Made by a program: the position numbers and the translations under genes
Part shown: in pieces, positions 161-53,700 of the stretch
Layout of the letters: every line of letters begins with the position of its first letter
How positions within the stretch are numbered: position 1 is the stretch's first letter
The notes under the pieces: model-generated
Told to the model about the DNA's origin: nothing
Databases searched by the model: none
Seen by the model: the letters and a program-made list of their open reading frames with translations, nothing else
Assembly (NCBI RefSeq): GCF_006345805.1
Contig: NC_043000.1
Location: 73,780,001-73,844,000 of the forward strand
Direction: 5' to 3'
Length of the DNA stretch: 64,000 nt
Source of the DNA: Octopus sinensis
Taxonomy: Eukaryota

Positions 161-611
161 CTTCCGACGCCGATGGACGTACGTGAGTCGGCTCCGTGAA
201 TTTGACACCAGTTTCATTGGAGATCTATTGTTGGGTTCGAATATTTTTTAATGTTTTTGTGGCCAAGCCGACCGGCTTCTTGCGGAGCTCGTCGGTTGGG
301 CGAAGTTTTGCCCCATGCGGGGTGAAATTGCGTTTTAAAATTTTGAACATTTGACATTTTTCAACATTTTGAATATTACAACAAAAAAAAACATGGCTAT
401 GAAGCGAACAGTTGGCTGTTCCTTCCTTCAAGATACACTCCCTCCGCAAACACACACAACTCGTACAAAACACCCACTTCACGCCTTAAAAGGCAACAAA
501 GATTCTCCTTCCGAACCGCAGAGCACGAGCTCCGTTCAAAAGTAGAATGCAAGCCAGGACGTCGCGTTCGACGTAATTCTCGATTTTCCCCCTCTGCCTT
601 CACCTAATGCT

Positions 612-1997
612 TTGGTACGGAAGGAGGAGGAAAAAAAAACAAATACAAAAATCATCACAAACATTGACACGGAGATAAAAGAAAAAACTTCCAACAATTT
701 TGCTTCTGCTGCGAAGCAAATTTCGGAGGAAGTTAAGATAACTCTAGAAGATGTGAAAAGAGCGAAGGAATTGTTAAGGAAGGATGGCAATGGTATCTTC
801 CTCAATACTCCACAAGAGGTGATTGAAAGCACCAACAAGCAAACAATAATTTACAAAGTTTTCGACAGAAAACTAAAAAGAATAACAAATGCCACACCCC
901 AACAGTTGGAGATAGCTCTAAAGCCCATTTGGGCCCAAAAGAGCTACGTAACCAAGGGGAAGCGTTTTGGAACCGTGGAGGTTCGCTTCCCAACAGAGGA
1001 GCTTGCAAGGGCGAACGCCATTTCGCCCTTGCAAACTGAGAATTTGTTACTAATTCCGACCCACCTCGGGCGAAGAGTAACAAAAATAAAAATCGACCTC
1101 GTCCCCCCTGAGCTAAATATGTCATGGCTGGTGGCAGCTGTCCTCTATGATATAGAGGACACTACCACCATTCTAGATGTCAGGAGAGTGAGGGCGAAAA
1201 ACTGGTTGGGGATGGGAGTGCTGCTTCTTGCGCAAATTCAGCAAGAGAATATAAGTAAAATCCCTGATTTCGTAAGTTTGCCGGACGGCACCAGGCTAAA
1301 CGTTGCTGTGGAGGGGCGAAAGCCAAAATGTTTTCTCTGCAGCAGCGAAAGCCACTTAAAGAGGGACTGTCCCATTCACAAAAAGAGGATGGAGGCTTTC
1401 AGCAAGAGGCAGCAGCAACAACAACAACAACAACAACAACAACACAAGCAACAACAACAGAAACAACAAAAACAGCAAGAAACACCAAAGGCTGCCACAC
1501 CACCAACACCATCACCAACACCAGCACCAAGACGAACAACACCACCTCCAACAACAACAACCACCACCAAACCAACACCGACAACCACCAGCAAACCAAC
1601 ACCGACACCAGTACCTCGAAGGTCGACAGCAGCGACATCAACAGTAACAGGAGCAGCGGCACCACCGATACCGGCGGAACCAAAAGCTTTTCGTCCTGCT
1701 ACTGAAGCAGACCCCTCAACCATTCCTTTGCCGGATGAAGAGATCTCGGATTGTGCGAGCTCTGATTCCAACAAAGGAGAATGGAACATAGTACCTCCAA
1801 AAAAGAAAAGGAGGAAAACACAAAAAGATTTACAGGGGAAGCACGAACAAACAGTACTTCCCAACATCAACAACAACATCAACAACAACACACACTCACA
1901 ACAACAAACAACAACAACAACACTTTCGACACCACTACTGCCACTACCACAGACACAACAAACACAGACACAATTACAGACACGATTACAGCAGTGA
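612..1997 (+). CDS. ORF1 nucleic-acid-binding protein (zinc knuckle, poly-Q and P/T-rich tail); true start probably upstream and end probably 2266 via frameshifts
   Basis: CFLCSSESHLKRDC = CX2CX4HX4C; homologous to ORF 6566..7411. Confidence 0.8.
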   Translation: MVRKEEEKKTNTKIITNIDTEIKEKTSNNFASAAKQISEEVKITLEDVKRAKELLRKDGNGIFLNTPQEVIESTNKQTIIYKVFDRKLKRITNATPQQLEIALKPIWAQKSYVTKGKRFGTVEVRFPTEELARANAISPLQTENLLLIPTHLGRRVTKIKIDLVPPELNMSWLVAAVLYDIEDTTTILDVRRVRAKNWLGMGVLLLAQIQQENISKIPDFVSLPDGTRLNVAVEGRKPKCFLCSSESHLKRDCPIHKKRMEAFSKRQQQQQQQQQQQHKQQQQKQQKQQETPKAATPPTPSPTPAPRRTTPPPTTTTTTKPTPTTTSKPTPTPVPRRSTAATSTVTGAAAPPIPAEPKAFRPATEADPSTIPLPDEEISDCASSDSNKGEWNIVPPKKKRRKTQKDLQGKHEQTVLPNINNNINNNTHSQQQTTTTTLSTPLLPLPQTQQTQTQLQTRLQQ

Positions 1998-2304
1998 ATA
2001 CAAGAAACCAGGAACTGGTTGAGTATTTGAAAAACAAAACAAGCACAAACATTACAGATTTCATAATACCTACACACAACACACCACCAGCACACATTCT
2101 CACAATAAAAATAAACAAAACAGTTTACAACGAAATAAAACAAATATTCCCTAACGATGTGGGATCGTTAGGGAAAAGTTTCTCTCAGAAACTTTACAAA
2201 AATATTATTGAAGCACCCGTGCAAAAGCACAAGGGAGCCACCCCCACCACCAACAACAGTAAGTAGAGCCTTTTCTCTCCTTTTTTTCCCCTAACTTTTG
2301 AAAC

Positions 2305-5300
2305 ATGGCAAATCTTAGAATCGGTTGTTTGAATGTGAGAGGCCTCGGGTCACCTTGGAAACAGGGTCACCTGTTAAACGACCTGAGGTTTCATGATGTG
2401 GATGTAGCAGCCATCAGTGAAACCAGGCTCTCCGACCCGCAGGAACTCGCAGCCCTTTTCGGCGGATACGAGATATTTCTATCTCCGTGTCGGCCGGGAG
2501 CGGGCGGTGGTGGTACTGCGGTGTTGTTTCGGAAGGGCCTGGACCTGAAAATAAGGACAGTCTTCTTGGATCCGGAAGGTAAGTTGGTGGTCCTCGACGT
2601 GGACGGTAGTGACGGCGGTGCTTTCAGACTGCTGGCTGCCTACGCTCCGACAGGAGCAGGGCAGTCGGATTATTTCAAACGTCTGGAAGTTTTCCTGGGA
2701 ACGTCACGCACTCTAGAACTAGTTGGGGATTGGAACGCTGTCTTAGACGAACGTTTCGATCGGGTGGGCAGGGGAGCGTCTGATAGGAGAGGGGGAGGGT
2801 GCAAGAGCCTCGCCAACCTACTCGGCCGCTTTCAGCTGTCCGACAGGTTTCGACTAGAACCCGAATGTGCCAATGTGGACTTGGACAAACCGCATCGGGT
2901 CGTCTAGATCGTACTTAGATAGAGTGTTTTGTAGGCCAGCGGATAAGGACAGCGTAGGGTGTCCACAATTCCACCTAGTCGAATATACGGACCACAAATT
3001 AGTGATCTGTACGGTCGACTTAGATAGGCTACATAGACAGGGACCCGGCTACTGGAAGCTGAACGCGTCGTTAACGGCGTGCAAAGCTTACAGAGACCGG
3101 ATTAGTTTACTAGTTAAGCGGGCGCTCACGGGGGCAATCATCAACAACAACTGGTGGTTTGCCCTCAAGAGAGCAATTAGAGTAGAGTCGATTAGGTATA
3201 GTAAGACTCTAGCTATTGAACGTAGGAAGAGAGAGCGGGATTTAGTTAAGAAACTAGACGAGGCTCTTGACACTGGCATCGCGACCGACGTGTTGGCGGC
3301 AAGGTTGGCCCTCGACCAACACTTCGACGCCAAACACGAAGGCTGCGTTGTCAGAGCTAAGGCACGTTCGCTAAGCGGGGAGGGGACTAGAAGCCGCTCG
3401 ATGGGGCCCGCGTGGCGGAGGCGAAGCGAGGCAACAGAGCAACCATTCGGTCTTTGGTGGACCAGAACGGGCGCGAGGTTACCCAACCGAAGCAGATGTG
3501 TACGGTGCTTCAGCGGCACTTTACTCAACTGTTTGGGACGAGCGGTTGGAACGGACACCAACGGTACAGACTTCGGTGTGTACCTGGACGGACTGCCGCA
3601 ACTCTCGGACAGCGAGGCAGAGTGCTGCGAAGGACCGATATCTGCCTGGGAAGTACAGGAAGCGATGAAGAGTTGCACGAGAGGTAGATCGCCGGGTTTG
3701 GATGGTCTGCCCTACGAGCTTTACTTTTCAATGCCAGACTTGTTTGCGGACCTGTTGGCAAACGTCTACTGCAACTGGCAGCAAAACGGGAGAATTCCTG
3801 CTTTTGTCTGTCGAGGGGTGGTGGCTTTGCTAAAGAAGGACCCAAACAAGGGGGACGTTATAGGGAATTTCCGGCCCATCACTCTGCTCAATGCAGAGTT
3901 GAAGATTTTGGCCAAGGTGCTAGCCAAGAGATTGGCGCTTGTCGTTGACAAGCTGGTCGGCGGGACGCAGACATGCGCCGTGCCGACCAGGTCGATACAC
4001 GACAACCTCCATCTCATGCGCTACATCATAGAGAGGGTGGGTAACGACGCTGGCGCGGGTGGGGCTTTGATCAACTTGGATCAGAGTAAAGCCTTCGATA
4101 GGGTCGACCATCGGTACCTGGCAGCTGTCCTCAAGGCAGCCGGCTTCGGTCCAGTCTTCCGCGGGTGGATCGCTGCTTTATACAGCAACATCTGCTCGGT
4201 GATACGGGTGAACGGTCACCTTTCGGAACCGTTCGACATCTCGCGTTCGGTCCGCCAAGGATGTCCTCTCTCCTCCCTCTTGTACATTTTGACTCTCGAG
4301 CCATTACTGCGCAAGTTGGAGGCTTTGAGGGGCATCCCGCGCGATCTAGGAGGCGGAAACAGCGTGTCTGCTTATGCCGACGACGTCACCGTGGTGGTGT
4401 CGATCCACAGGCACATTGGCCTGATTGGCGAGACGCTAAACCAGTACGAAGCGGTGACAGGGGCAAAGATTAACGCGGAAAAGTCTGTGGGCTTGCAACT
4501 GGGCACCTGGAGAGGCAAGCCCATGCCGTCCAACAGCGTCGTAGGGCGCTGGACAGACGGACCCGTTAAACTGCTCGGGGTCTGGTTCGGTCCGGACCTC
4601 CAGGTGGATAAGAACTGGGAAGAGGTGACGAGCAGGGTGGCACGTCTCACCCAGAAATGGGCCGAGAGGAAGCTGTCCCTGAAAGGTCGAGCGGAGGTGG
4701 CGAAGCGTACATCGCATCCGTCATCTATTACCGCTTGACCGTCGTCCCTTGTCCCGACCGCTGGTTGGCCAAGCTGGTACGCCTGCTCTTCGACTTTTTG
4801 TGGAAGGGTCAGGTGCCACTGGTCAAGGCGATCCATCTGCTGTCAACGACCGCTGAACGGAGGCCTTGGAATGCCGTGGTTGCTGTTGCGCAGACATGCG
4901 CTCAGGCTGCGGCATCTCAAGCGCTTCCTAGACGGTGAACAGGTGTGGTCGTCTTTTGTCAGACGCGATTTTCCGCAGCTCGTCTCTTTGACGGAGCTGC
5001 AGACCTGGATCAAACGTAGACCGAGAAAGGGCGCGTGGCACCTCGAGTGCCGTCAAGCCCTCTCCGCCCTCCACCAGGCGGGCAATGCGGTCGGTTACAG
5101 CTCCACTCTAGCGTTCTATAGAGGGTTAGTGGAGGAAAAATGCGACGACGTTCTCGGGGAAACTCTAGGCGTTGAAGACGACGAACTGAGCGGTCTGTTC
5201 GGGAGGACTTTCGGGCCGGGACCGATGGATAATTTCCAGAGGTCTCTCGCCTGGCAGTGCTACCGAGGGGCTCTGCCTGTTCGAGATAAACTCTACCGGC

Positions 5301-5740
5301 ACGGAAGTGCCGTCAGCCGGGCCTGCCCGAGATGTTGCCAGGACGACGAAACCGTTCTGCACGCACTCGTCCAGTGCCCGAGTATTGCTGAAATATGGGT
5401 TTATGTCGAACAGCTACTGTCACGTGTAGGACGGATCCGACTATCGGCCGAATCCATAGTGAAGATTGCCCCGCCGACCTCCTTTAACAAGGAGGGCGAG
5501 GCCGTTTTCTTGTGCCTTGTGGCTGTGGCGAAAGAAGTCGTGTGGTGGACTCGTTTGAAAGGGCTAAAGTCAGACACTTTCCTCTTTGGTCAAGGCCTCA
5601 TCAACTTTTTCAAGTTTCACTTGAAAAGGAAGATGAGGTTAGAGAGGAAAGTGCTGTCCGATAGCAAGTTTTATGAAAGGTGGGTGAATTGTGCGAGACT
5701 GGCCTGTATAAATGGACCAGTTCTCAGGTTTCGCCTGTGA
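2305..5740 (+). pseudogene. ORF2 (APE endonuclease, reverse transcriptase, C-terminal zinc finger), broken by single-base frameshifts
   Basis: APE motifs LNVRG, SETR, YAP, GDWN, LDR, TDH; RT motifs SPGLDG, FRPITL, DQSKAFDRV, RQGCPLS, YADD; CPRCCQDDETVLHALVQC. Confidence 0.92.
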
Positions 5741-6565
5741 TTTCAAAGAAAAAGGTAATGTAAAAGGAGAAGAAAGGGGACTCTGTACACCCCCTTTTTT
5801 TGACCAGGCTCCCGTTGGCTTTTGTAGGGTTTTTTCCACCAGGAACCTTTCGAGACGTCTCCCCCTTTTGGGAGTTTTTCATTGTTGAATTTTATAAGTT
5901 GTTATAAAGATTTTTACTCGATGTTTTTAAAAAAACGGCAAAACCCTTTGTAACCTGTCGTCCTGTCTTGTCCCTTTATGTAATCATGCGTGTCAGCCCT
6001 TGTGGCCAATAAAAAAGAATTGATTATTATTATTATTATTCTTTCTTTCTTTCCGAGACGACGGACGTGTGTAAAGCAGCACCGTAAGTTTTGTGCCAAT
6101 TTGATTGGAAATTTCTCTAAAAGTTTTTACATTTTTTGATAATTGTGTGGCCAAGCCGACTAACTTCTTGCGGAGCTAGTTGGCTAGGCAAAATTTTACC
6201 CCATTGGGGGTAAAATCACTGTTTAAAATATTGACATTTGCATTTTATTTCACTTACAAATTTCCAAAATGTCGTTAAAAAGAGCAGCTGGCTCTTCCCT
6301 TCTTGCAACCCCCCCCCCCTCCACAAGAAAATATTGATTCTCCAAACCGCCCATTTCGTGCCTTAAAAGGCAAAGAAAACTCTTCGATGAAACATGTCGT
6401 TCCAAAAAAGAATGAAAATGAAAACGAAGGCGTCACTTTTGACGTCTTCGAAGACTTCCCTCCTCTTCCCTCTGCAAGCGTCCCAGTAGGGGGGAAAAGA
6501 CGGACAAAAGCAACAAAGATGGCGTCACCTTTGACGTCAATCAGAATTTTCTTTCTCTCCATTCC

Positions 6566-8170
6566 ATGAGTGCAACAGTAGGGGAAAAAGAAGAAAAGAA
6601 AATAACAAACATCATCACCGACAACACCACCAGCAACAACACAACAAGCCACCATAGCAATTTTGCTTCCATCACAAAAGAAAACACAGAGCAAATTCAA
6701 GTTACATTTGACGAAATAAAATCTGCTAAGGAGTTGTTGAGAAAAGAGGAAAACAGTGTTTTCCTCAATACACCTCAACAACTCATAAACGAAACAAAAA
6801 AAAAAAGAACTGTAATTTATAACGTTTTCGATAAGAAAAACAAAAAAATAACTAATGCAACACCCCAACAATTGGAAATGGCTCTTAAACCCATATGGGC
6901 CAAAAAGAGCTATGTCACAAGAGGGAAGCGTTACGGGACGGTGGAGGTTCGCTTCCCAACGGAAGACGATGCAAGGGCGCATACCATTTCGCCCTTGCAA
7001 AATGATAATTTCTTTCTGGTCCCATCATACCTCGGGCGGAAAGTACAAAAAATTAAAATTGATATAGTACCCCCCGAACTCAGTATATCATGGCTGGTGG
7101 CGGCTGTCCTCTATGACATAGAGGACACTGCCACTATTCTAGATGTACGAAGGGTAAGAGAGAAGAACTGGTCAGGTATGGATGTTCAACTGCTGGTACA
7201 AATCCAGCAGGAAAACATTAATGCCATACCTGACTCAGTCATTTTACCAGACGGAACCAGGCTGCACGTTACTGTGGAGGAGCGAAAGCCAAAATGTTAC
7301 CTCTGTAGTAGCGAAAACCACCTTAAGAAGGACTGCCCCATTCACAAAAAAAGAATGGAGACATACGGCAAGAGGCAGCAGCAGCAGCAGCAACAACAAC
7401 AACAACAATAGAAACAACAGCACGAAACACCAAAGGCTGCCACACCACCAACACCATCACCACCACCGCGACGAACGACACCACCTCCAACAACAACCAC
7501 CAAACCAACACCAACCCCAGCACCAAGAAAAACGACAACAAAAAAACAAGGAGAAACACCAACACCGTCACCATCACCAAAAGACAGCAACAACACCGCT
7601 ACCAGCAAAACCAACAAAAATCTTTCACCCTGCTGATGAAGCGGACCCGACAGCCATCCCCTTTCCGGATCAGGACAGCTCGGATTGTGCGAGCACTGAT
7701 ACCGAGAAAGGGGAATGGCACACAGTGCCTCCAAAGAAGAAAAGGAGGAAAAAACAAAAGGACACACAGGGGAAGCACGAACAAATAGTGCTTCCCAACA
7801 TCAACAACAACAACAACATACACTCACAACAACAAACAACAACAACACTTTCGACACCACTACTGCCACTGCCACACACACCAACACACACAGACACGAT
7901 TACAGCAATAAACACAAAAGATGAAAAACTAGTTACATATCTAAAAGACAATACAAGTACACAAATTGAAGATTTCATTATACCAACACACAACACACCA
8001 CCAGCACACAATCAAAATTAATCAAAAACATATAGCGAAATAAAACAAATATTCCCTAACGATGTCGGATCGCTAGGGAAAAGTTTCTCAAAGAAACTTT
8101 ATAAAAATATTATTGAAGCACCCGTGCAAAAGCACAAGGGAGCCACCCCCACCACCAACAACAGTAAGTA
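6566..8170 (+). pseudogene. ORF1 of Tx1 copy 2 (stop after poly-Q, frameshifts)
   Basis: CYLCSSENHLKKDC knuckle; homologous to 612..2266. Confidence 0.8.
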
Positions 8171-8212
8171 GAGCCTTTTTCTCCTTTTATTTTTTTTTCT
8201 CACCTTTGAAAC

Positions 8213-11200
8213 GTGGCAAAACTTAGAATCGGTTGCTTGAATATGAGAGGCCTCGGGTCACCTTGGAAACAGGGTCACCTGTTAAACGACCTGAGGTTTC
8301 ATGATGTGGATGTAGCAGCCATCAGTGAAACCAGGCTCTCCGACCCGCAGGAACTCGCAGCCCTTTTCGGCGGATACGAGATATTTCTATCTCCGTGTCG
8401 GCCGGGAGCGGGCGGTGGTGGTACTGTGGTGTTGTTTCGGAAGGGCCTGGACTTGAAAATAAGGACAGTCTTCCTGGATCCGGAAGGTAAGTTGGTGGTC
8501 CTCGACGTAGACGGTAGTGACGGCGGTGCTTTCAGACTGCTGGCTGCCTACGCTCCGACAGGAGCAGGGCAGTCGGATTATTTCAAACGTCCGGAAGTTT
8601 TCCTGGGAACGTCACGCACTCTAGTGCTAGTTGGGGATTGGAACGCTGTCTTAGACGAACGTTTCGATCGGGTGGGGCAGGGAAGCGTCTGATAAGAGAG
8701 GAGGGTGCAAGAGCCTCGCCAATCTACTCGGACGCTTTCAGCTGTCCGACAGATTTCGACTAGACAACCCGAATGTGCCAATGTGGACTTGGACCAATCG
8801 TATCGGGTCGTCTAGATCGTACTTAGATAGACTGTTTTGTAGGCCAGTGGATAAGGATAGCATAGGGTGTCCACAATTCCACATAGTCGACTACACGGAC
8901 AACAAATTCGTGATCTGTACGGTCGACTTAGATAGGCTACGTAGACAGGGACCCGGCTACTGGAAGCTGAACGCGTCGTTAACGGCGTGCAAAGCTTACA
9001 GAGACCGGATTAGTTTACTAGTTAAGCGGGCGCTCACGGGGGCAATCATCAACAACAACTGGTGGTTTGCCCTCAAGAGAGCAATTAGAGTAGAGTCGAT
9101 TAGGTTTAGTAAGACTCTAGCTATTGAACGTAGGAAGAGAGAGCGGATTTAGTTAAGAAACTAGACGAGGCTCTTGAGACTGGCATCGCGACCGACGTGT
9201 TGGCGGCAAGGTTGGCCCTCGACCAACACTTTGACGCCAAACACGAAGGCTGCGTTGTCAGAGCTAAGGCACGTTCGCTAAGCGGGGAGGGGATTAGAGC
9301 CACTCGATGGGCCCGCGTGGCGGAGGCGAAGCGAGGCAACAAAGCAACCATTCGGTCTTTGATGGACCAGAACGGGCGCAAGGTTACCGAACCGAAGCAG
9401 ATGTGTACGGTGTTTAAGCGGCACTTTTCTCAGCTGTTTGGGGTGAGCGGTGGTACGGCCAACAACGGTACAGACTTCAGTGTGTACCTGGACGGCCTAC
9501 CGCGGCTCTCGAACAACGAGGCAGAGTGCTGCGAAGGACCGATATCTGCCTGGGAAGTGGAGGAAGCGATGAAGAGTTGCACGAGAGGTAGATCGCCGGG
9601 TTTGGATGGTCTGCCCTACGAGCTTTACACTTCAATGTCAGACTTATTTGCGGGGCTGTTGGCAAACGTCTACTGCAACTGGCAGCAAAACGGGAGAATT
9701 CCTGCTTTTGTCTGTCGAGGGGTGGTGACTTTGCTAAAAAAAGGACCCAAACAAGGGGGACGTTATAGGGAATTTTCGGCCCATCACTCTGCTCAATGCA
9801 GAGTTGAAGATTTTGGCCAAGGTGCTAGCCAGAAATTGGCGCTTGTCGTGGACAAGCTGGTTGGCAAGACGCAGACATGCGCCGTGCCGACCAGGTCGAT
9901 ACACGACAACCTCCATCTCATGCGCTACATCATAGAGAGGGTGGGTAACGACGCTGGCGCGGGTGGGGCTTTGATCAATTTAGATCAGAGTAAAGCCTTC
10001 GATAGGGTCGACCATCGGTACCTGGCAGCTGTTCTCAGGCAGCCGGCTTCGGTCCAGTCTTCCGAGGGTGGGTCGCTGCTTTATACAGCAACATCTGCTC
10101 GGTGATACGGGTGAACGGTCACCTTTCGGAACCGTTCGACATCTCGCGTTCGGTCCGCCAAGGATGCCCTCTCTCCTCCCTCTTGTACATATTGACTCTC
10201 GAGCCATTACTGCGCAAGTTGGAGGCTTTGAGGGTATCCCGCGCGATCTAGGAGGCGGAAACAGCGTGTCTGCCTATGCCGAGACGACGTCACCGTGATG
10301 GTGTCGAGCCACAGGCACATTGGCCTGATTGGCGAGACACTAAACGAGTACGAAGCGGTGACAGGGGCAAAGATTAACGCGGAAAAGTCTGTGGGCTTGC
10401 AACTGGGCACCTGGAGAAGCAAGCCCATGCCGTCCAACAGCGTCGTAGGGCGCTGGACAGACGGACCCGTTAAACTGCTCGGGGTCTGGTTCGGTCCGGA
10501 CCTCCAGGTGAATAAAAACTGGGAAGAAGTGACGAGCAGGGTGGCACGTCTCACCCAGAAATGGGCCGAGAGGAAGCTGTCCCCGAAAGGTCGAGCGGAG
10601 GTGGCGAATGCATACATCGCATCCGTCATCTATTACCGCTTGACCGTCGTCCCTTGTCCCAACCGCTGGTTGGCCAAGCTGGTACGCCTGCTCTTCGACT
10701 TTTTGTGGAAGGGTCAGGTGCCACTGGTCAGGCGATCCATCTGCTGTCATCGACCGCTGAACGGAGGCATTGGCATGCCGTGGTTACTGATGCGCAGACA
10801 TGCGCTCAGGCTGCGATATCTCAAGCGTTTCCTAGACGGTGATCAGGTGTGGTCGTCTTTTGTCAGACGCGACTTTCCGCAGCTCGTCTCTTTGACAGAG
10901 CTGCAGACCTGGATCAAACGTAGACCGAGAAAGGGCGCCTGGCACCTCGAGTGCCGTCAAGCTCTCTCCGCCCTCCGCCAGGCGGGCAATGCGATCGGTT
11001 TTAGTTCCACTCAAGCGTTCTATAGAGGGTTAGTGGAGGGAAAATGCGACGACGTTCTCGGGGAAACTCTTGACGTTGATAACGAACTGAGCGATCTGTT
11101 CGGAAGGACTTCCGGGCTGGGGCCAATGGATAATTTCCAGTGCTACCGAGGGGCTCTGCTTTACACTTCAATGTCAGACTTATTTGCGGGGCTGTTGGCA

Positions 11201-12483
11201 AACGTCTACTGCAACTGGCAGCAAAACGGGAGAATTCCTGCTTTTGTCTGTCGAGGGGTGGTGACTTTGCTAAAAAAAGGACCCAAACAAGGGGGACGTT
11301 ATAGGGAATTTTCGGCCCATCACTCTGCTCAATGCAGAGTTGAAGATTTTGGCCAAGGTGCTAGCCAAGAAATTGGCGCTTGTCGTGGACAAGCTGGTTG
11401 GCAAGACGCAGACATGCGCCGTGCCGACCAGGTCGATACACGACAACCTCCATCTCATGCGCTACATCATAGAGAGGGTGGGTAACGACGCTGGCGCGGG
11501 TGGGGCTTTGATCAATTTAGATCAGAGTAAAGCCTTCGATAGGGTCGACCATCGGTACCTGGCAGCTGTTCTCAAGGCAGCCGGCTTCGGTCCAGTCTTC
11601 CGAGGGTGGGTCGCTGCTTTATACAGCAACATCTGCTCGGTGATACGGGTGAACGGTCACCTTTCGGAACCGTTCGACATCTCGCGTTCGGTCCGCCAAG
11701 GATGCCCTCTCTCCTCCCTCTTGTACATATTGACTCTCGAGCCATTACTGCGCAAGTTGGAGGCTTTGAGGGGTATCCCGCGCGATCTAGGAGGCGGAAA
11801 CAGCGTGTCTGCCTATGCCGAGACGACGTCACCGTGATGGTGTCGAGCCACAGGCACATTGGCCTGATTGGCGAGACACTAAACGAGTACGAAGAGGGTA
11901 TAGAGGGTTAGTGGAGGGAAAATGCGACGACGTTCTCGGGGAAACTCTTGACGTTGATGATAACGAACTGAGCGATCTGTTCGGAAGGACTTCCGGGCCG
12001 GGGCCAATGGATAATTTCCAGTGCTACCGAGGGGCTCTGCCTGTTCGGGATAAACTCTACCGGCACGGAAGTGCCGTCAGCCGGGCCTGCCCGAGGTGTT
12101 GCCAGGACGACGAAACCGTTCTGCACGCACCGGTCCAGTGCCCGAGTATTGCTGAACTATGGGTTTATGTCGAACAGCTACTGTCGCGCATAGGACGGAT
12201 CCGGCTATCAGCCGAATCCATAGTGAAGATTGCCCCACCGACAATGTGGAAGGGTCAGGTACACACTGTGGTGAAAGAGATTGTATGGTGGACCCGTTTG
12301 AAAGGGCTAAAGTCAGACACTTTCCTCTTTGGTCAAGGCCTCATCAACTTTTTCAAGTTTCACTTGAAAAGGAAGATGAGGTTAGAGAGGAGAGTGCTGT
12401 CCGATAGCAAGTTTTCTGAAAGGTGGGTGAATTGTGCGAGAATGGCCAGTATAAATGGACCAATTCTCAGGTTTCGCCTGTGA
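8213..12483 (+). pseudogene. ORF2 of Tx1 copy 2, frameshifted, RT segment duplicated
   Basis: ORF fragments 8213, 8775, 9197, 10295, 11340 and 11815 match copy 1 ORF2. Confidence 0.9.
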
Positions 12484-12821: not shown

Positions 12822-12865
12822 GTGAGGGTTGGAATTAACAAGATTAATGTTGGAACTCCCAGAAA

Positions 12866-13172
12866 ATGGCCGACCAATTCCCGGACGTCTGTGGAGGTCT
12901 TTATCGCGATGATTGTCTGCTTTATCTCCAAAACATTTCAAATCAAAAAATACAAAAGGTTAAGAATAGATTAGTTGGGTTTTTTTACATCGTTTTTGAC
13001 GATGAGTTAAATAAAGCTAATTTCTTAGACATTACTCTCAATTTACAAAATAGCTCGTACTTCCCATACCATAAACCTTCCACAAATCTCAAATATATTA
13101 GTCCTTACAGTAATCACGCTAGGGCAATTACTAAGAATTTAGTTAAAAACATTTCACTTAGATTATCTAAAT
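12866..13172 (+). pseudogene. Penelope-like element reverse transcriptase fragment
   Basis: GGLYRDD...NFLDITL...YHKP...YISPYSNH...NISLRLSKL, typical PLE RT core and thumb. Confidence 0.8.
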
Positions 13173-13204
13173 TATGCGCGTATTTTCCTTTTTTAATTTC
13201 TTTT

Positions 13205-13391: not shown

Positions 13392-13445
<54 letters not shown>

Positions 13446-13537
13446 ATAAAACGGTAAGATAACAAAAGAAAGAGACCTCAATATTATGTAAATAGAGGAA
13501 ATTTATCTATACAATATGTTACATTACTCGGTAGTCA

Positions 13538-13599
13538 AGATAAAACTCTGAGTTTCAGATGCCGAAGTGGAATCCACAACACCATCTCTTCGGTTATCT
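13538..13599 (-). ncRNA. Hammerhead-like ribozyme (variant core), left arm copy
   Basis: Reverse complement of 13612-13674. Confidence 0.5.
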
Positions 13600-13611
13600 G
13601 GCTAAATAGCC

Positions 13612-13674
13612 AGATAACCGAAGAGATGGTGTTGTGGATTTCCACTTCGGCATCTGAAACTCAGAGTTTTATCT
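13612..13674 (+). ncRNA. Hammerhead-like ribozyme (variant core CCGAAGA)
   Basis: AGATAA-CCGAAGA-GATG...CATC-T-GAAA-CTCAGAG-TT-TTATCT: 6 bp stem I, stem II, minimal stem III; U4C change and one extra base. Confidence 0.5.
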
Positions 13675-13696
13675 TGACTACCGATTAATGTAACAT

Positions 13697-13759
<63 letters not shown>

Positions 13760-26123: not shown

Positions 26124-26135
26124 ATATATATATAC

Positions 26136-26166
<31 letters not shown>

Positions 26167-26384
26167 TAATAATAAATATTAGGGAATAAATCCAAACTTA
26201 CAGGGAAAAATCAGATTTAGGATTGAATCCAATTTTATAGTAAAATATTATATTATATTAAATTAGAGACAAAACCACTATTAGGCAAATCATACAATGA
26301 AAAACTTAAGCCAATACATAAGATTATTTAATTTATATTATTTAAATATATAACAAAATTATTAAAAAAATATAATTAATATAT

Positions 26385-26448
26385 CACTACGATCGTTTCA
26401 TGGCTGTTAATTTCTTTAAATTTTCAAGTCACAGTCATTCATCAGGTG
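26385..26448 (-). ncRNA. Hammerhead ribozyme (type I, minimal palindromic stem III)
   Basis: CAC-CTGATGA-ATGACTGT...ACAGCCAT-GAAA-CGATCG-TA-GTG. Confidence 0.75.
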
Positions 26449-27123
26449 GTTTAAATATCAGACTCAATATTCAATAAACCATTAAATATTTATTATTTAG
26501 TAATAAAATATTTAGTAATAAAATGAACAACCATCTATAATCTAACTATAATTAAAAACAAAACCTAACTAACTAAAATAATCTATTATAATAAGTACTA
26601 CAAATCACCTGGTATATTTATAATACTATTACATAAAACAACAAATAGGGAGCTAATTAAGGCTAAGAAATAATCATTATTTATCAAGAAATTTATTATA
26701 TAAGTAAAGTAACTTGTGTCTGCATTTTATTTTGCGCTCATCACAGGTATTCAGTAAATTATCATGCTTATAAAATAAAATTTCCTTAAACTCATTAGAG
26801 CATAAATAACAAAAATTCGCTCCTATAGTATATGATTTAGTTTTACTAATTATTTCCCAAGATAAATTATAATTAATAAATTTCTTGATAAATAATGATT
26901 ATTTCTTAGCCTTAATTAGCTCCCTATTTGTTGTTTTATGTAATAGTATTATAAATATACCAGGTGATTTGTAGTACTTATTATAATAGATTATTTTAGT
27001 TAGTTAGGTTTTGTTTTTAATTATAGTTAGATTATAGATGGTTGTTCATTTTATTACTAAATATTTTATTACTAAATAATAAATATTTAATGGTTTATTG
27101 AATATTGAGTCTGATATTTAAAC

Positions 27124-27187
27124 CACCTGATGAATGACTGTGACTTGAAAATTTAAAGAAATTAACAGCCATGAAACGATAGTAGTG
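27124..27187 (+). ncRNA. Hammerhead ribozyme, right-arm copy (stem III CGATAG, one substitution)
   Basis: CAC-CTGATGA-ATGACTGT...ACAGCCAT-GAAA-CGATAG-TA-GTG. Confidence 0.7.
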
Positions 27188-27348
27188 ATATATTAATTAT
27201 ATTTTTTTAATAATTTTGTTATATATTTAAATAATATAAATTAAATAATCTTATGTATTGGCTTAAGTTTTTCATTGTATGATTTGCCTATTAGTGGTTT
27301 TGTCTCTAATTTAATATATATACATATATATATATATATGTGTGTGTG

Positions 27349-35027: not shown

Positions 35028-36985
35028 TGGCAAAGTTTCTACAGCTGAATGTCCTTCCTAACGCCAACCACCCCGAGAGTGTAGTGGGTGCTTTTATGTT
35101 TCACTGGCATGAGGGCCAGTCAGGTGGTACTGGCACGACCATGCTCATATGGTGCTTTTTACGTGCCACCTGCACAGGAGTCAGTCCGGTGGAACTGGCA
35201 GCGACCACGCTCGAATGGTACTTTTTACGTGCTACCGGCACAGGAGCCAGTTAGGCAATGCTGGTTACAATCACGCTCAAATGGTGATTTTTACGTGCCA
35301 CAGGCATGGGAGCCAGTCAGCGGCCCTGGCAACAATCACACTCAAATGATGCTTTTAACATTCTACTGGCACAGGTGCCAATCAGGTGGTGCTGTCATCG
35401 GCCACAACAATGATTTCACTTGCCTCAACAAGTCTTTGCAAGCGTAGTTTATTGTTAAGGGTAACCTTAAATGGGCTGGTTATACAGCACTGGCATAAGA
35501 CACAGTTATGGTCTCATTTGGCTTGCCAGGTCTTCTCAAGCACAGGTTGAGCTCATCTCCGAAGGTCTCGGTCATTTGTCATTGCCTTGGTGAGGCCCAG
35601 TTTTCCTCAACTGCTAGGGTGCGACGCTTCTTCACACAACTATCCTTATCCATTCGCAACACATGACCATACCAGCAGTCATCTCTCTTGCACACCACAT
35701 CTCATGCTTCTTAAGTACAAATTTTCTTTCAGGGCGCTTACACTCTTTTGTGTATGCACACTGATATTACACATCCAGCGGATCATACTGGCTTCATTCC
35801 TTGCAACCTTCACGTGTCCTCAGCAGTCACAGCCCATGTTTCACTGCCATGTAGCATGTCTGTTTGCACACATGCTTCATACAGTCCACCAGCAGGTGTA
35901 TGAGCTCTCTGAATTTGCCCGGGCTATTCTTATTCTAGCAGCTACACTTTCAGAGCATCCACTCCAGCTACTGACTTGGTCACCTAGGTAATGGAAGCTA
36001 TCAACCACTTGTAGTTTTTCCCCCTGGAATGTGATGGAAGCTGTTCTCAGCACGTTTTCAGTGTTTATTGCTCCTGAGCATTTACCACATACAAAAACTA
36101 TCTTCCCAGTTAGCTTTCCTTTGATATTGCTGCACCTCTTATGTGTCCATAGGTTAAACAGGGTACATCTTATGGAATTTCTACCTACGCCTTTTCTACA
36201 GATTGAGCAGAGCCGTCTACCTGAAAGGATTTGTAGATGTCTGACTTCCTACTAATTAAAATTTTCGCTTTTGCTAGATTGACTCTAAGACCCTTTTATT
36301 CTAGACCTTGCTTCCATACCTGAAATTTCTCCTCTAGTTCTGATAGTGACTCAGCAATTAGAGCAAGGTCATCAGCATAGAGGAGCTCCCAGGGGCATCC
36401 TGTCTTGAATTCCTCTGTTATTGCCTGGAGGACTATGACGAATAAGAGAGGGCTGAGGGCTGATACTTGGTGGACCCTACCCCTACTCAGAATTCTTCCC
36501 TGTACTTGTTGCCAACTCTCACCTTACTGACAGCACCCCTGTACATGGCTTGTACAACTCTCACTAACCATTCATCTATTCCTAGTTTCCTCATTGATCA
36601 CCAGATAAGGGATTGGCGGACCCTACCAAAGTATTTCTCCATGTCAACGAAAGCCAGGTACAGAGGTTATTCTTTGGCTAGGTATTTCTCTTGCAGCTGT
36701 CTTACCAGAAATATAGCATCAGTGGTGCTTTTTCCTGGCACAGACCCAAACTACATCTCATCTAGACAGACTCTCTCCCTAATTAGTTGGGCTATAACCC
36801 TCTCCGTGACTTTCATTACCTGATCCACCAACTTGATACCTATGTAATTATTTGCATCTAATAGGTCACCTTTACCTTTGTAGCAGTTGACTATTATGCT
36901 GCTACACCAGTCATTGGGTATGACTCCTTCGTGTATCACCTGGTTGACTATAAGCCTAACTAGACTATGGCCGACACTACCATAC
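35028..36985 (-). mobile_element. 5'-truncated RTE-clade LINE
   Basis: IPNDWCSSIIVNCYKGKGD, LLYADDL region; same 3' UTR subrepeats as the 31976-35000 copy. Confidence 0.85.
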
Positions 36986-37061
36986 ATACATATATATATA
37001 TATATACAATATATATATTATATATTATTATATATATACATATATATATAATATAATATAT

Positions 37062-37094
<33 letters not shown>

Positions 37095-37143
37095 TACCTA
37101 TATATATATATATATCTACATAATATATATATATATTATATAC

Positions 37144-37185
<42 letters not shown>

Positions 37186-37187
37186 TA

Positions 37188-37219
<32 letters not shown>

Positions 37220-37266
37220 TATATATATATTACATATTATATACATATATATATATATATCATATA

Positions 37267-37306
<40 letters not shown>

Positions 37307-37433
37307 CATGATATTATATTATATATACATATATATTATATATATACATATATATATATATATTATACATATATATATATATATATACATCTATATATAT
37401 ATCTATATATATATAATACACATATATATATAT

Positions 37434-37483
<50 letters not shown>

Positions 37484-37496
37484 TTATATATATATA

Positions 37497-37571
<75 letters not shown>

Positions 37572-37704
37572 TATATATCTTATATATATATACATATATA
37601 TATATATATAATAATTATACATATATATATCTATATATATATCTTACATATATATTATATATAATCTATTATATATCTATATATATCTATATATATATAT
37701 ATAC

Positions 37705-37755
<51 letters not shown>

Positions 37756-37838
37756 AGACATATATATAATATATATTATATACATATATATATACATATA
37801 ATATACATATATATATACATATATATAATATATATATA

Positions 37839-37882
<44 letters not shown>

Positions 37883-38091
37883 ATATATATATATAATATA
37901 TACATATATATATAATATATATATATATACATAGATATCTTATATATAATATATATATCTATATATATATATATATCTATCATATAAGATATATATATAC
38001 ATATATCTATAATATATATACAATATTATAATATATATATATATACATATATATATATCTACATATATATATATATATATCTAATATACTC

Positions 38092-38125
<34 letters not shown>

Positions 38126-38441
38126 CATATATAATATATATACATATATACATACTATATATATACATATACTATAATATATATATATACATATATATAT
38201 ATATAATATATATATACATATATATATATACATATATATATATATTCATATATATTATATATCCATATCTATATATATATATATATATATACATATATAC
38301 TATATATTATATATATACATATATATATATATATCTATAATATATATATATATATATATATCTATATATCTATACATTATATTATATATATAATATAATA
38401 TATATATATACACTAATATATATATATATCTATAGACTATA

Positions 38442-38491
<50 letters not shown>

Positions 38492-38871
38492 ATATATCTA
38501 TATATATATATATATACTTCATATATATACTTATATATATATATATATACAATATATATATATATAATATATATATCATATATATATATCTAATATATAT
38601 ATAACATATATATATATATATATATATAATATATATTATAGATATATAATATATCTATTATATAGTATATATATATATTATACATATATATATATATATA
38701 TACATATATATATAATATACTATACAATTATATATATTATATATATATACATATATCTATATATAATATATATATATATATTATATATATATCTATATAT
38801 ACATATATATATATCATATCTATACATATATATTCTATATACATATATATATATATATATATTATATATAC

Positions 38872-38907
<36 letters not shown>

Positions 38908-38981
38908 TATATATACATACATAGCATATATCTATATCTATATATACTATATATATCTATATATACATATATTCTATATCC

Positions 38982-39035
<54 letters not shown>
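36986..39035. repeat. About 2 kb imperfect (TA)n tract
   Basis: Direct inspection. Confidence 0.95.
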
Positions 39036-39036
<1 letters not shown>

Positions 39037-39208
39037 TGAGTGTATTTTTGCCTTGTTAACAATTAACACGAAAAAAAATAGTTACCACAGGGTAGCAAAA
39101 ATCACACAAGTAAAGAGGTTGTAACGCCTTGTTCATAAAGGTAGAAACTTCGTGTTTACGTGGAATGTTTTGTATAATATATAAATCAGGTATAAATCAA
39201 ATACTTTT

Positions 39209-39295
39209 ACTTTCGACACATGTTTCGAAAATTCCACTGATATTATTCAAAAGAATAAATGGTATAAAACAATGCAATCTTCTCTTCAGGAAAGT
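39209..39295 (-). ncRNA. Hammerhead ribozyme (canonical core, GUC site)
   Basis: ACTTTC-CTGAAGA-GAAGATT...AATTTTC-GAAA-CATGTG-TC-GAAAGT. Confidence 0.8.
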
Positions 39296-39343
39296 GAAAA
39301 AACTAAACTCGTCAATAAGATATTTTAGCATATATATATATAT

Positions 39344-39382
<39 letters not shown>

Positions 39383-39408
39383 TATATGTATATATATGTA
39401 TATATATG

Positions 39409-39459
<51 letters not shown>

Positions 39460-39642
39460 AGTGATAGTCTATTCTATTCTATTATTCTATTTATTCTTTT
39501 ATCTACTTTATCACTGATTCTTTTGACCACTCCCCTAAGAAAGACAGTTTGCGCCATGCCTACCCCAAAAAGTCCCCCACCACCACCACCACCACTTTAA
39601 ATCTGCCTAAATGTATAAATGCCAAAACTATTCTTGTCACCA

Positions 39643-39693
39643 AGCTTCCTGATGATTTCTTTTGAATGAAACAGTTCTAGTCCTGTAGAAGCT
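39643..39693 (+). ncRNA. Hammerhead ribozyme (compact, GUA site)
   Basis: AGCTTC-CTGATGA-TTTC TTTT GAAT-GAAA-CAG TTCTAGTC CTG-TA-GAAGCT. Confidence 0.85.
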
Positions 39694-39906
39694 CCTTCTA
39701 TAAAATAAATTAATTTACTCTGCTATGTATTGAGTACTTTATTTACTGTGGTTAACCCCGACTCAACCCGGGACCTACATATATATATATATATATATAG
39801 AAATTCAGGGTGAGCACTTGATAATTGTAAGCACCTGTATATACCGTTTGGTGGTGTAGGTGGTGGAGTAAATTAATCAAAATAAAAACATGATGCCAAG
39901 GATTCA

Positions 39907-39984
39907 GCGGTACATATGTTTCGGGCCTTTATTAGAAGGATTTATAACAATGCATAATGTGTGTCTATGGCCTTCTTCAGCCGC
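39907..39984 (-). ncRNA. Hammerhead ribozyme (palindromic minimal stem III)
   Basis: GCGG-CTGAAGA-AGGCC...GGCCC-GAAA-CATATG-TA-CCGC. Confidence 0.78.
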
Positions 39985-40243
39985 GCACAATTACTACCTC
40001 AAGGACATGTATTACATCAAAATTTCTACGTTGGGGATGCAAATCCTCTCATTCGCGTACGACATAATGCGGCAACAGCACAAAAATGAAGCGTCCATCT
40101 CGTCCTTCTCTACATTGAGAGAAGGACGAGATGGACGCTTCATTTTTGTGCTGTTGCCGCATTATGTCGTACGCGAATAAGAGGATTTGCATCCCTAACG
40201 TAGAATTTTGATGTAATACATGTCCTTGAGGTAGTAATTGTGC

Positions 40244-40321
40244 GCGGCTGAAGAAGGCCATAGACACACATTATGCATTGTTATAAATCCGTCTAATAAA
40301 GGCCCGAAATATATGTACCGC
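40244..40321 (+). ncRNA. Hammerhead ribozyme, right-arm copy
   Basis: GCGG-CTGAAGA-AGGCC...GGCCC-GAAA-TATATG-TA-CCGC. Confidence 0.75.
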
Positions 40322-40354
40322 TGAATCCTTGGCATCATGTTTTTATTTTGATTA

Positions 40355-40394
<40 letters not shown>

Positions 40395-40409
40395 TTATTA
40401 TATAGAAGG

Positions 40410-40460
40410 AGCTTCTACAGGACTAGAACTGTTTCATTCAAGAGAAATCTTCAGGAAGCT
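40410..40460 (-). ncRNA. Hammerhead ribozyme
   Basis: AGCTTC-CTGAAGA-TTTC TCTT GAAT-GAAA-CAG TTCTAGTC CTG-TA-GAAGCT. Confidence 0.85.
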
Positions 40461-41679
40461 AGTTGACAAGAATTGTATTGGCATTTATACATTTAGGCAG
40501 GTTTAACGGGGTGTTGGTGGGGGACTTTTTTGGGGGTAGGCATAGCACAAAATATCATACTTGGGGGAGTGGTCAAGGAGTCAGTGTTAAATTAGATAGA
40601 AGAATAAATAAAAATAAAAATAAAAAAATAAAAAAATAAAAAATAAAAAAATAAAATAAAAAAACCTATATATAAAAAAAGGGGGGATAGAGTTTTAGGT
40701 AAATAAGGAGATTCTCACTTATACCTATGCACACATGTATACATACATACACACACATACAAACACATATACATATACATACACACACATATATATACAT
40801 ATATATACACTTACACATACACATGCATATACATATCTACACATACACATATAGACAGATAAATGGACTGGCTGTCATAGCCAAGATGTTTGTGACCAAG
40901 CGGCCAAAGATAACAAAAGTAATAAACAGAAGATAATAAAATTAAAATTAGGGAATGGGCCTGTATTAGTATGTGTATATATATGTGTGTATGTGTAGGT
41001 TTGCATAGGTACACATATGTATATGTATACATGTATGTATATGTATGTATGTGTGTGTATATGTGTGTGTATGTGTATATATGTGTATATAGGGACTAGT
41101 GCGCTGTGTGTGCATGTGTGTGTGTGGATATGTGTGTGTATGCGTGTATGTGAGTATGTGTGTGTATGTGTATATATATTTTTCTGTGCGTATATGTATG
41201 TGAGGTTGTGTGTGTATATATACATGTGTGTATACGTGTATGCATGTGAGTGTGTGTGTGTATACATATATGTGTATGTGTAGATATGTATATGCATGTG
41301 TATGTGTAAGTGTATATATATGTATATATATGTGTGTGTATGTGTGTATGTATATGTATATGTGTTTGTATGTGTGTGTATGTATGTATACATGTGTGCA
41401 TAGGTATAAGTGAGAATCTCCTTATTTACCTAAAACTCTATCCCCCCTTTTTTTATATATAGGTTTTTTTGTTTTTTTTATATATAGGTTTTTTTATTTT
41501 ATTTTTTTATTTTTTTATTTTTTTATTTTTATTTATTCTTCTATCTAATTTAACACTGACTCCTTGACCACTCCCCCAAGTATGATATTTTGTGCTATGC
41601 CTACCCCCAAAAAAGTCCCCCACCAACACCCCGTTAAACTTGCCTAAATGTATAAATGCCAATACAATTCTTGTCAACT

Positions 41680-41730
41680 AGCTTCCTGAAGATTTCTCTT
41701 GAATGAAACAGTTCTAGTCCTGTAGAAGCT
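41680..41730 (+). ncRNA. Hammerhead ribozyme
   Basis: Identical to 40410-40460 on the opposite strand. Confidence 0.85.
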
Positions 41731-41818
41731 CCTTCTATATAATAAATTAATTTTACTCTGCTATGTATTGAGTACCTTATTTACTGTGGTTAACCCCGAA
41801 TCAACCCGGGACCTACAT

Positions 41819-41854
<36 letters not shown>

Positions 41855-42102
41855 AATGGTTGTTGCCACCTCAACGTGGTTGTTCTGTACAAAAATCTCC
41901 CATCCAGAGGTGACAAGTGTCCAGTACTGAGGTAGGGTAAGACCCTGAAACCAGTTCTGATCTACTAGTCCTGTTGTCGATGGCAATATAATGGACACAG
42001 ATATTGTGTTCTTAACCAGCTGGAGAAGGCGTCCTCCTGGGTTAAAAAGAATAGTAACATTGTTCTGTAAGGAACAACTACGCTGAGGTGGGAACAACCA
42101 TT
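41855..42102. mobile_element. 248 bp element with ~35 bp inverted termini inside (TA)n
   Basis: AATGGTTGTTGCCACCTCAACGTGGTTGTTC versus GAACAACTACGCTGAGGTGGGAACAACCATT. Confidence 0.7.
41923..41966 (+). ncRNA. Hammerhead-like motif (A9U variant)
   Basis: AGTA-CTGAGGT-AGGGT AAG ACCCT-GAAA-CCAGTTCTGA-TC-TACT. Confidence 0.55.
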
Positions 42103-42140
<38 letters not shown>

Positions 42141-42237
42141 TAACAATAAAGGGTGAAATTAATTAATTTGGAATAATTATTAATTACACCAAGTAGATTT
42201 CGGCATGTAAAAGCCTCATTCGAGGAAAATTTAAGTA

Positions 42238-42405
42238 ATACTAAGCAATTAAGGGTTTAGCAACGAATTGCCTCACCACACACCGAATTTAGAAATAGCA
42301 GTCAAAGAGTTATAGTAGAAAGAATAGCTATAACTCTTTGACTGCTATTTCTAAATTCGGTGTGTGGTGAGGCAATTCGTTGCTAAACCCTTAATTGCTT
42401 AGTAT
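42238..42405. repeat. Perfect palindrome (78 bp arms, 12 nt loop) between (TA)n tracts
   Basis: 42238-42315 is the reverse complement of 42328-42405. Confidence 0.95.
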
Positions 42406-43320
42406 ATATATATATATATATACAAATATATACACACGTGCATACATACATATATATATCATTCAACTACATTAGTAGTTGAATATTATCGCAGGTTTTT
42501 TTGTTGCAGTCGGCGTCTTCCTAGCAGTCTCAATAAGTCGGTTTTAATAGAAATCAAATTTAGTTTCTTGAATTTTGCTTGACTAGTGATAAGCTACATT
42601 TAGACATAAAATACTTAAAATCTGGTGCAGTAGAACAAACATTAAGAGAAAAAAATGTATAGACCATACTGGTTGACTGTGTAACAGGATGAAAGGTCTG
42701 TAACACTGGATGGGTGCAGCTCTCATTCTTATTAATCGAAGAAAAAGCCAAAACTTCTGATTATCTTCAACAGCATAAATATTTCATTTCTGGATTCGCA
42801 ATATATACATTCTTCTTTCAGGGCCAACCGGTAGCCTAGGAGTTCGTCGCAATAGTCAAGTGAAGTGAGCCAAATCCTGTCCGTTCAAGCATAGCATAGC
42901 AACGCCACGATGTGCAGCTTGAGAAAGCTGCTAAAACACGTCCGTCTTGTTGGGCTGTCAGCATTCGAGAGACCGATACGTGGGAAATTTTGCTGCTGCT
43001 AGTTTTCTGCGTAAGCGCATGAGGGAACTTCCGGCAGGCCTCCCTGAAGAATCCAACTCTGCGCATGCGTGCTGAAGATTTCCAAAATTGCATCACTACA
43101 AGGCTCCCCTCGAGTGCGGAAGCACGAAACAGAAGATTGTAGTGGTTTCAGAAAACAAGTTGGCTACCGATCACCCAGAAGATGTGGTACACAACATGAC
43201 AACACAAATAACTGTGCAAAAAAAATAATAATAATAACATGCACAAAGTTGTTTTTTTTCTCTCAACAAAATGTCCAAGAGTAAAACATGAAATTGACCA
43301 GGAGAAAAAAAGTATGTCAA

Positions 43321-53337: not shown

Positions 53338-53698
53338 ACTAGCCAATGAAAATGCGAATGCATACTAACAATATTCTTAACAATTAAACCTGGAAAAGTA
53401 GAGGAAAAGAAAAAACTCATTAAAATTAGAGCTCAAAATATTGCTGCTAAAATTAAAACTTAAAATGTTTTTATTAATTCATTTAGTACAAAAAATAAAA
53501 TTAAAATAAAAAAAGGAAAGGTGAAATTAAATGAATTTTTAAAAAAAGATGGAAAAGTACGTAAGAGGTACATTTTAATGTTAATTTTAGCAGCAATATT
53601 TTAAGCTCTAATTCTAATGAGATTTTTCTTGTCCTCTACTTTTCCAGGTTTAATTGTTAATAATATTGTTTGTATGCATCTGAATTTTTCATTGGTTA

Positions 53699-53700
<2 letters not shown>
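53338..53700. repeat. Diverged fold-back (about 130 bp arms, 100 bp spacer) abutting (TA)n
   Basis: 53338-53467 is inverted relative to 53570-53700. Confidence 0.85.

Follow-up and report, generated by a model that had tools for sequence, protein, structure and literature searches.

Hammerhead-bearing inserts in (TA)n tracts of Octopus sinensis are probably 5'-truncated ends of a family mobilized by Penelope-like machinery

Introduction

The locus analyzed here raises the question of which kind of element leaves several hammerhead motifs between runs of (TA)n, and whether the motifs are kept by selection. A first-pass annotation of the window, the whole 64,000-nt (64-kb) stretch of Octopus sinensis DNA that was analyzed, had proposed a single retrozyme-like ribozyme family. 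Hammerheads in the ends of Penelope-like elements (PLEs) are well known, so the finding itself was to be expected; what they do in PLEs is still under discussion (PMC8557442; PMC11167929).

Three hammerhead motifs of one design

The window contained three type I hammerheads of 51 nt each (Table 1). All of them had intact core boxes (CUGANGA, GAAA, and NUH) around three helices with helix I open. A type III topology was ruled out because no core follows the downstream hairpin. Stem I had 6 bp in each copy. Stem III, CAG/CTG, had 4 bp with A15.1-U16.1 included and carried an 8-nt loop, which in copy 3 holds a centered 4-nt palindrome. The cleavage triplet was GUA (39685-39687 in copy 1). Stem II began in all three copies with a U10.1·U11.1 mismatch, in place of the R10.1-Y11.1 pair that closes helix II, followed by 3 bp and a 4-nt loop. 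We regard the U·U as a variant trait and not as a disqualifying one, because a natural U·U variant cleaves weakly in axolotl (PMC7229834). An extension of stem I, for contact between loops I and II, was not clear by eye.

A relaxed hammerhead descriptor matched five times in the window and not once in any of 40 locally shuffled windows. This bears out the earlier description of a 51-nt hammerhead with a 6-bp stem I and a CAG/CTG stem III at three sites. The statement that variation falls only on N7 and the stem II loop was also right: copies 2 and 3 were identical across all 51 nt, and copy 1 differed from them only at N7 and one letter of loop II. The U10.1·U11.1 mismatch, the 3-bp stem II, and a second 3' terminus had been missed.

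The Rfam search gave no gathering match in the window, and no hammerhead family was among the 75 matches at E ≤ 10 in 39000-42450; neighboring PLE-type hammerhead motifs were likewise missed by the Rfam models. Matches to miRNA families scored below gathering and were set aside as hairpin and microsatellite noise.

Table 1. Positions of the hammerheads, insertions, and neighboring palindromes in the window
Feature	Position	Strand	Basis or remark
Type I hammerhead, copy 1	39643..39693	+	Cleavage predicted after 39687, from hammerhead numbering
Type I hammerhead, copy 2	40410..40460	-	Same sequence as copy 3; cleavage predicted after 40416
Type I hammerhead, copy 3	41680..41730	+	Cleavage predicted after 41724; variants only at 41690 and 41713
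Insertion A, single 5'-truncated 3' end (pLTR-like), long terminus	39460..39779	+	BLAST likeness and TA flanks
Insertion B, head-to-head inverted insert; short tail-less arm on -, long tailed arm on +	40389..41817	.	Self-BLAST
Short inverted arm, ending at short 3' terminus (equivalent to 41747-41751)	40389..40853	-	94.6% to 41267-41751
Long arm, at least 960 nt, non-coding	40854..41817	+	In order: unique stretch (about 100 nt), degenerate TG/TA repeat, T-rich tract, and a last stretch of about 280 nt that holds hammerhead and tail
Optional 3' tail, 66-70 nt, between short and long termini	41748..41817	+	Run contigs
Terminal stem-loop with A/C-rich loop beside long terminus	41785..41817	+	-8.5 kcal/mol
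8-bp hairpin over cleavage triplet and 3' strand of stem I	41721..41739	+	MFE; recurs in copies 1 and 2
(TA)n target run right of insertion B	41817..41854	.	Remaining flanks 39330-39459, 39780-39799, 40358-40390
Solo element between (TA)n runs	39030-39330	.	PLE-type hammerhead 39209-39295(-), long helix II, palindromic stem III, GUC
Palindromic insert between (TA)n runs, 69-nt one-sided tail	39801-40359	.	PLE-type hammerhead 39907-39984(-)
Palindrome with 57-nt tail	13444-13711	.	Hammerheads on both arms, 13538-13599/13612-13674, core U4 to C, GUU triplet
Near-perfect palindrome (99%), 1.1 kb, about 110 extra nt on left	26135-27327	.	Hammerhead-like motif about 27124-27189(+) and its mirror, by eye

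Two insertions between (TA)n runs

In self-BLAST, 40389-40853 and 41267-41751 proved to be inverted, head-to-head copies of each other (94.6% across 485 columns), and the unique 5' part of the two arms was identical at 144 of 145 positions. Copies 2 and 3 are thus the arms of a single inverted insert between (TA)n runs (insertion B), so that the three copies claimed earlier are three motifs in two insertion events. The left arm of insertion B borders directly on (TA)n, and the right arm extends 65 letters further before its own run begins. We assign the 413-nt center (40854-41266) to the long arm, as its probable continuation. Insertion A is a separate solo end with (TA)n on both sides, 87% alike to 41513-41818. 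All four flanks of the two insertions are (TA)n, and target-site duplications cannot be discerned within such runs.

The long arm (40854-41817) contained no open reading frame except those opened by simple repeats, and no coding sequence for an RT or a GIY-YIG endonuclease, the copies being 5'-truncated; the lack of coding sequence stated by the first-pass annotation was thereby upheld. An ATG within the motif of copy 3 (41703) reads four codons and then a stop.

The start of insertion A (39455-39470) resembles 41406-41419 (compared with 41404-41420). This likeness suggests that an upstream boundary is shared and that a variable T-rich tract separates this boundary from the conserved part.

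Two 3' termini across a family seen in public runs

Copies 1 and 3 end alike before (TA)n (39779 and 41817), as had been reported, and the motif ends 87 nt before this long terminus. The stretch was present in 20 of the 24 listed public runs, from 11 studies and under five organism labels. Four of the 24 runs, labelled as three organisms, were compared with 41536-41828 at 80% likeness (with about 76% of run X1 covered), which matched 13013, 2261, 315, and 57 contigs. Among the 24 of 130 loose-end rows that were listed, contigs passed from the element into (AT)n at 41747 in each of the four runs (20, 12, 6, and 2 contigs) and at 41751 in X1 (11) and X15 (2); the 3' loose ends among these rows led into (AT)n. 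The short loose ends coincide with the stop of copy 2; therefore the family ends at either of two 3' termini, which lie 66-70 nt from each other. The short end falls in AT-rich sequence, and microhomology there might also promote junctions. The earlier view of a ribozyme family that has a fixed 3' end and may be non-autonomous is upheld, with this second end (41747-41751) added. The stem-loop beside the long terminus is a candidate RT start signal, by analogy to the anole PLE (PMC11167929).

Joints were absent from the table of run contigs in the four runs, apart from a single 62-nt back-joint (41741 to 41680) in X1, with a depth of 30.7 against a summed depth of about 10^6. The region is repeat-rich, and no single listed contig of any run spans the whole stretch. 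In three runs the depth rose over 41686-41745; this rise was left out of account, since summed contig depth does not measure copy number. An exact 30-letter motif scan gave no match in metagenome, viral, or prokaryote genome contigs. Literature searches found no description of the family, which may already be contained in public repeat libraries or in the supplements of PMC4209133 and PMC8557442.

Conservation of the hammerhead and its flanks

Between copies 1 and 3 the core showed two differences against 49 matches. The 5' flank had 21 mismatches and four gaps against 125 matches, significantly more than the core (Fisher p = 0.018). The 3' flank (3 + 1 against 83 matches) was the same as the core (p = 1.0), and both flanks pooled gave p = 0.13. 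The claim that flanks diverge more than the core holds therefore on the 5' side and fails on the 3' side.

In the wider family, 17 variant rows were found over four runs: 12 in the 144 nt 5' of the hammerhead, several of which are the window copy departing from the majority letter and not family polymorphism, two inside the hammerhead, and three on the 3' side. The two within the 51 nt were N7 (41690, about 19-23% of depth) and a letter of loop III (41713, 5-26%). The core positions and all three stems had no listed variants in these runs, which carry three organism labels. The confinement of variable sites to the 13 free positions had p = 0.06 for two of two sites and 0.014 for three of three.

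In each of the four runs dissimilar 5' flanks joined the element at 41680, the first base of stem I (25, 7, 2, and 3 contigs; agreement 0.59-0.66). The X1 consensus at this boundary includes the reverse complement of the hammerhead, and therefore some of the joins are mini-palindromes centered on stem I. The boundary could reflect subfamily divergence, fold-back at a local palindrome, or a splice acceptor like that of D. virilis Penelope. By eye, the first AG of stem I could serve as the 3' splice site in such a case, but the mixed loose-end consensus is unlike the upstream sequence.

Conservation thus extends over everything from stem I to the terminus. Constraint on the ribozyme is likely, though not separated from constraint on a priming signal. 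Selection would presumably act on master elements and not on the inserted window copies. The purifying selection proposed earlier accordingly finds modest backing in the wider family, where common variants fall only on N7 and loop III and the joins lie at stem I; the window copies themselves represent only two events, and their 3' flank is as conserved as the core.

Predicted folding and cleavage

The active fold of the 51-mer had a predicted energy of -7.3 kcal/mol, compared with -8.5 for the MFE structure, and the 51-mer folded no better than shuffles (z 0.04-0.17). The stable stem III described by the first-pass annotation was overstated, as this hairpin alone gave -1.4 kcal/mol. Stem III pairing between two copies gave -12.8 kcal/mol; the common variant at 41713, with its longer loop palindrome, gave -15.2. 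We discarded the palindrome of loop III as proof of dimer cleavage, since it was matched by 12.5% of loop permutations (9.6% for the 41713 variant) and is not significant.

In the MFE structure a hairpin just 3' of the motif covers the cleavage triplet and one strand of stem I (Table 1). Predicted stem I pairing fell from 0.93 to 0.45 when the 3' end was placed at 41739 and to 0.24 at 41744; overall, a native 3' flank of 9-15 nt lowered it to 0.09-0.45. The best candidate for testing, as the motif had been called, may still serve, with care in the choice of construct, because such a short flank cuts the predicted pairing. An equally stable hairpin arose in 231 of 5000 shuffled downstream sequences (p about 0.05), and when 30 nt of upstream sequence were included, predicted stem I was lost in two neighboring hammerheads as well (0.00-0.04). 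For both reasons the folding result is weak, and the hairpin switch was rejected as a special feature.

Taken as models, these structures suggest that the hammerhead is probably a weak or conditional cutter, because of the U·U at the base of stem II, a stem III that pairs better as a dimer, and the competing 3' hairpin. An axolotl hammerhead with a U·U helix II was 22% cleaved in 1 h as a monomer and was cleaved better as a dimer (PMC7229834). Metazoan PLE hammerheads were weak in vitro (PMC4209133), and that of an anole PLE required protein for cleavage but was not itself required for insertion (PMC11167929).

Origin of the insertions

We consider it highly probable that the insertions are 5'-truncated, hammerhead-bearing 3' ends (pseudo-LTRs) of a young, high-copy family mobilized by PLE machinery. 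An inverted 5' arm, an optional tail, and a bias for microsatellites are hallmarks of PLEs (PMC8557442, PMC3846280), and the insertions show an inverted, 5'-truncated arm, an optional tail, a hammerhead in the terminal repeat, and a (TA)n target. PLE insertions share with the family 5' truncation, a head-to-head tail-less inverted arm, two 3' termini, (TA)n or AT-rich targets, a type I hammerhead near the 3' end, and an A/C-rich stem-loop near the terminus (PMC3846280; PMC8557442; PMC11167929). They differ in the tail, for which 30-40 bp is reported versus 66-70 nt here, and the 960 nt available here hold no RT or EN gene. The family also has no ORF start in or after the hammerhead, in contrast to the anole PLE (PMC11167929). 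The feature is real, with a mildly unusual hammerhead and a tail longer than reported for PLEs. Because no RT/endonuclease gene is linked to the copies, membership in an autonomous PLE is unproven; that the master element encodes its own protein and that it borrows one seem about equally probable.

The helices fit less closely. With the PLE hammerheads of PMC4209133, both metazoan minimal and fungal/protist, the family shares type I topology in a pLTR-like end and the palindromic character of loop III. The metazoan minimal form (min-HHR) has a long helix II with G10.1-C11.1 and a tiny helix III, whereas helix II is short here, with U·U. Helix I has 6 bp, and helix III, with 4 bp and an 8-nt loop, is closer to the fungal/protist 'large helix III' form than to the metazoan minimal one (PMC4209133).

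The mechanism that we propose is borrowed from the anole PLE, and in it a PLE protein, an RNA intermediate, priming, and any cleavage would all take part by analogy. The anole protein cuts both strands of AT-rich DNA in vitro, and an A/C-rich stem-loop holds two internal sites at which its RT starts, the tail being the stretch from one of these sites to the other (PMC11167929). Here, a PLE RT-endonuclease would cut both strands of a (TA)n run, and uncleaved RNA would be primed internally at one of two preferred sites, 41817 (long) or 41747-41751 (short). A single priming would give one truncated copy, such as insertion A with its long end. Priming at both sites, or fold-back, would give a palindrome of two head-to-head arms, of which one has the tail and the other lacks it, as in insertion B. 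Selection in master elements would keep the hammerhead.

Two other origins were weighed against truncated PLE ends. Non-LTR retrozymes are tandem units of 170-400 nt, cut by successive hammerheads, whose monomers circularise; the window copies would be dispersed monomers. Such elements, especially those with the axolotl HHR_Amex2, resemble the family in being non-coding, low in GC, and high in copy number, with a type I hammerhead that has U·U at the base of a short helix II and a 6-bp helix I (PMC7229834; preprint 10.64898/2026.07.22.740005), and the helix sizes are closer to theirs than to those of the metazoan PLE min-HHR. Retrozymes are moreover described as derivatives of PLE pLTRs, with solo monomers (preprint 10.64898/2026.07.22.740005), stem III can dimerise in prediction, and the X1 back-joint is of the expected kind. 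A search for tandem direct repeats, which the first-pass annotation had called for, nevertheless placed none of the three window copies in direct tandem, and the tail does not recur in the long arm, which is at least 960 nt long, against monomers of 170-400 nt; retrozyme consensus lengths reach 972 bp (preprint 10.64898/2026.07.22.740005). The back-joint is isolated and shallow, the listed 3' loose ends enter (TA)n, the loop palindrome is not significant, and the inverted insertion with its tail is of the PLE type. As no tandem array was seen in the window or in the contigs of the four runs, the name retrozyme is unsupported, and we think this origin improbable. Still less credible, indeed very unlikely, is an origin outside the PLEs, as a MITE or a SINE-like element, or an assembly error that made the palindrome. 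The palindromic outline suits it, as do the repeats of the region and the absence of one listed contig over the whole stretch in any run. The arms are, however, asymmetric, with a tail on one side only, and they lie head-to-head; insertion A is an arm on its own, and each of the two termini was found again in independent runs. A simple assembly duplication is unlikely because the arms differ at one of 145 unique positions and in repeat length.

A further reading concerns the motif more than the insertion: the hammerhead may be a decayed passenger, with 41680-41817 kept as a protein-binding or priming signal, or conserved because the family is young. The 3' flank as conserved as the core would follow from it; the restriction to unpaired positions rests on two or three variable sites, and in context the MFE structure differs from the active fold. 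In addition, hammerhead mutants of the anole PLE did not affect insertion in vitro (PMC11167929), and among the 24 of 130 rows listed no loose end lies at the cleavage site. Set against this are the core and stems free of listed variants in four runs, and the dissimilar 5' flanks that meet the first base of stem I in every run, as expected if diverged subfamilies keep the motif. We judge it doubtful, and yet the most serious of the alternatives.

Within the PLE reading, a more specific version is unlikely though slightly less so than retrozymes: a fully non-coding, very high-copy PLE parasite (a SINE-like passenger), whose near-canonical hammerhead would be switched off by the hairpin formed 9 nt after transcription of the motif. 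This would keep RNA uncleaved for priming at termini 66-70 nt apart, and the hammerhead would be switched on co-transcriptionally, by dimerisation, or by binding of PLE protein. If true, such a parasite with a hairpin switch would give a concrete structural basis for a 'protein-assisted' PLE ribozyme. The family offers a compact three-helix motif with numerous natural variants, two termini whose positions are mapped, and a hairpin known to compete with the active fold in prediction; therefore a simple test of control of cleavage by flank length, dimerisation, or PLE protein is possible.

Neighboring palindromes and repeats

Five of the six local palindromes examined had one arm against (TA)n and the other with 57-110 extra nt. 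Besides insertion B, three of these five carried outward-facing hammerhead motifs with a palindromic stem III, as in PLE min-HHRs. The hammerheads of the palindrome at 13444-13711 are probably impaired, judging by their core. Palindromes 42138-42405 and 53338-53700, both ending at (TA)n, had no hammerhead by the descriptor. Several families of this kind seem to have inserted again and again in 36982-42405, as though this region were a (TA)n hot spot.

Some further features were seen beside these. In palindrome 39801-40359, the hammerhead copy of the + arm (near 40245-40321) has a change in stem III, and in palindrome 26135-27327 a hammerhead-like motif with a 3-bp stem I (about 27124-27189, +) and its mirror were noted by eye. 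A degenerate (TA)n array of 2 kb (36982-39034) lies immediately left of the cluster of hammerhead-bearing inserts. The open frame 12848-13180 contains a GLYRDD motif, which we take to be typical of Penelope/Naiad-type RTs; it had no match in Pfam or PDB, and its reading as an RT fragment, putative only, was not retained. Two to three tandem LINE copies, about 5.9 kb apart and 94-97% alike, occupy 546-12483, with remnants of a gag-like ORF1, an endonuclease, and an RT (domains named by eye). The window as a whole is repeat-rich, animal-type DNA with many microsatellites and, by eye, remnants of LINE-, LTR-, and mariner-like ORFs.
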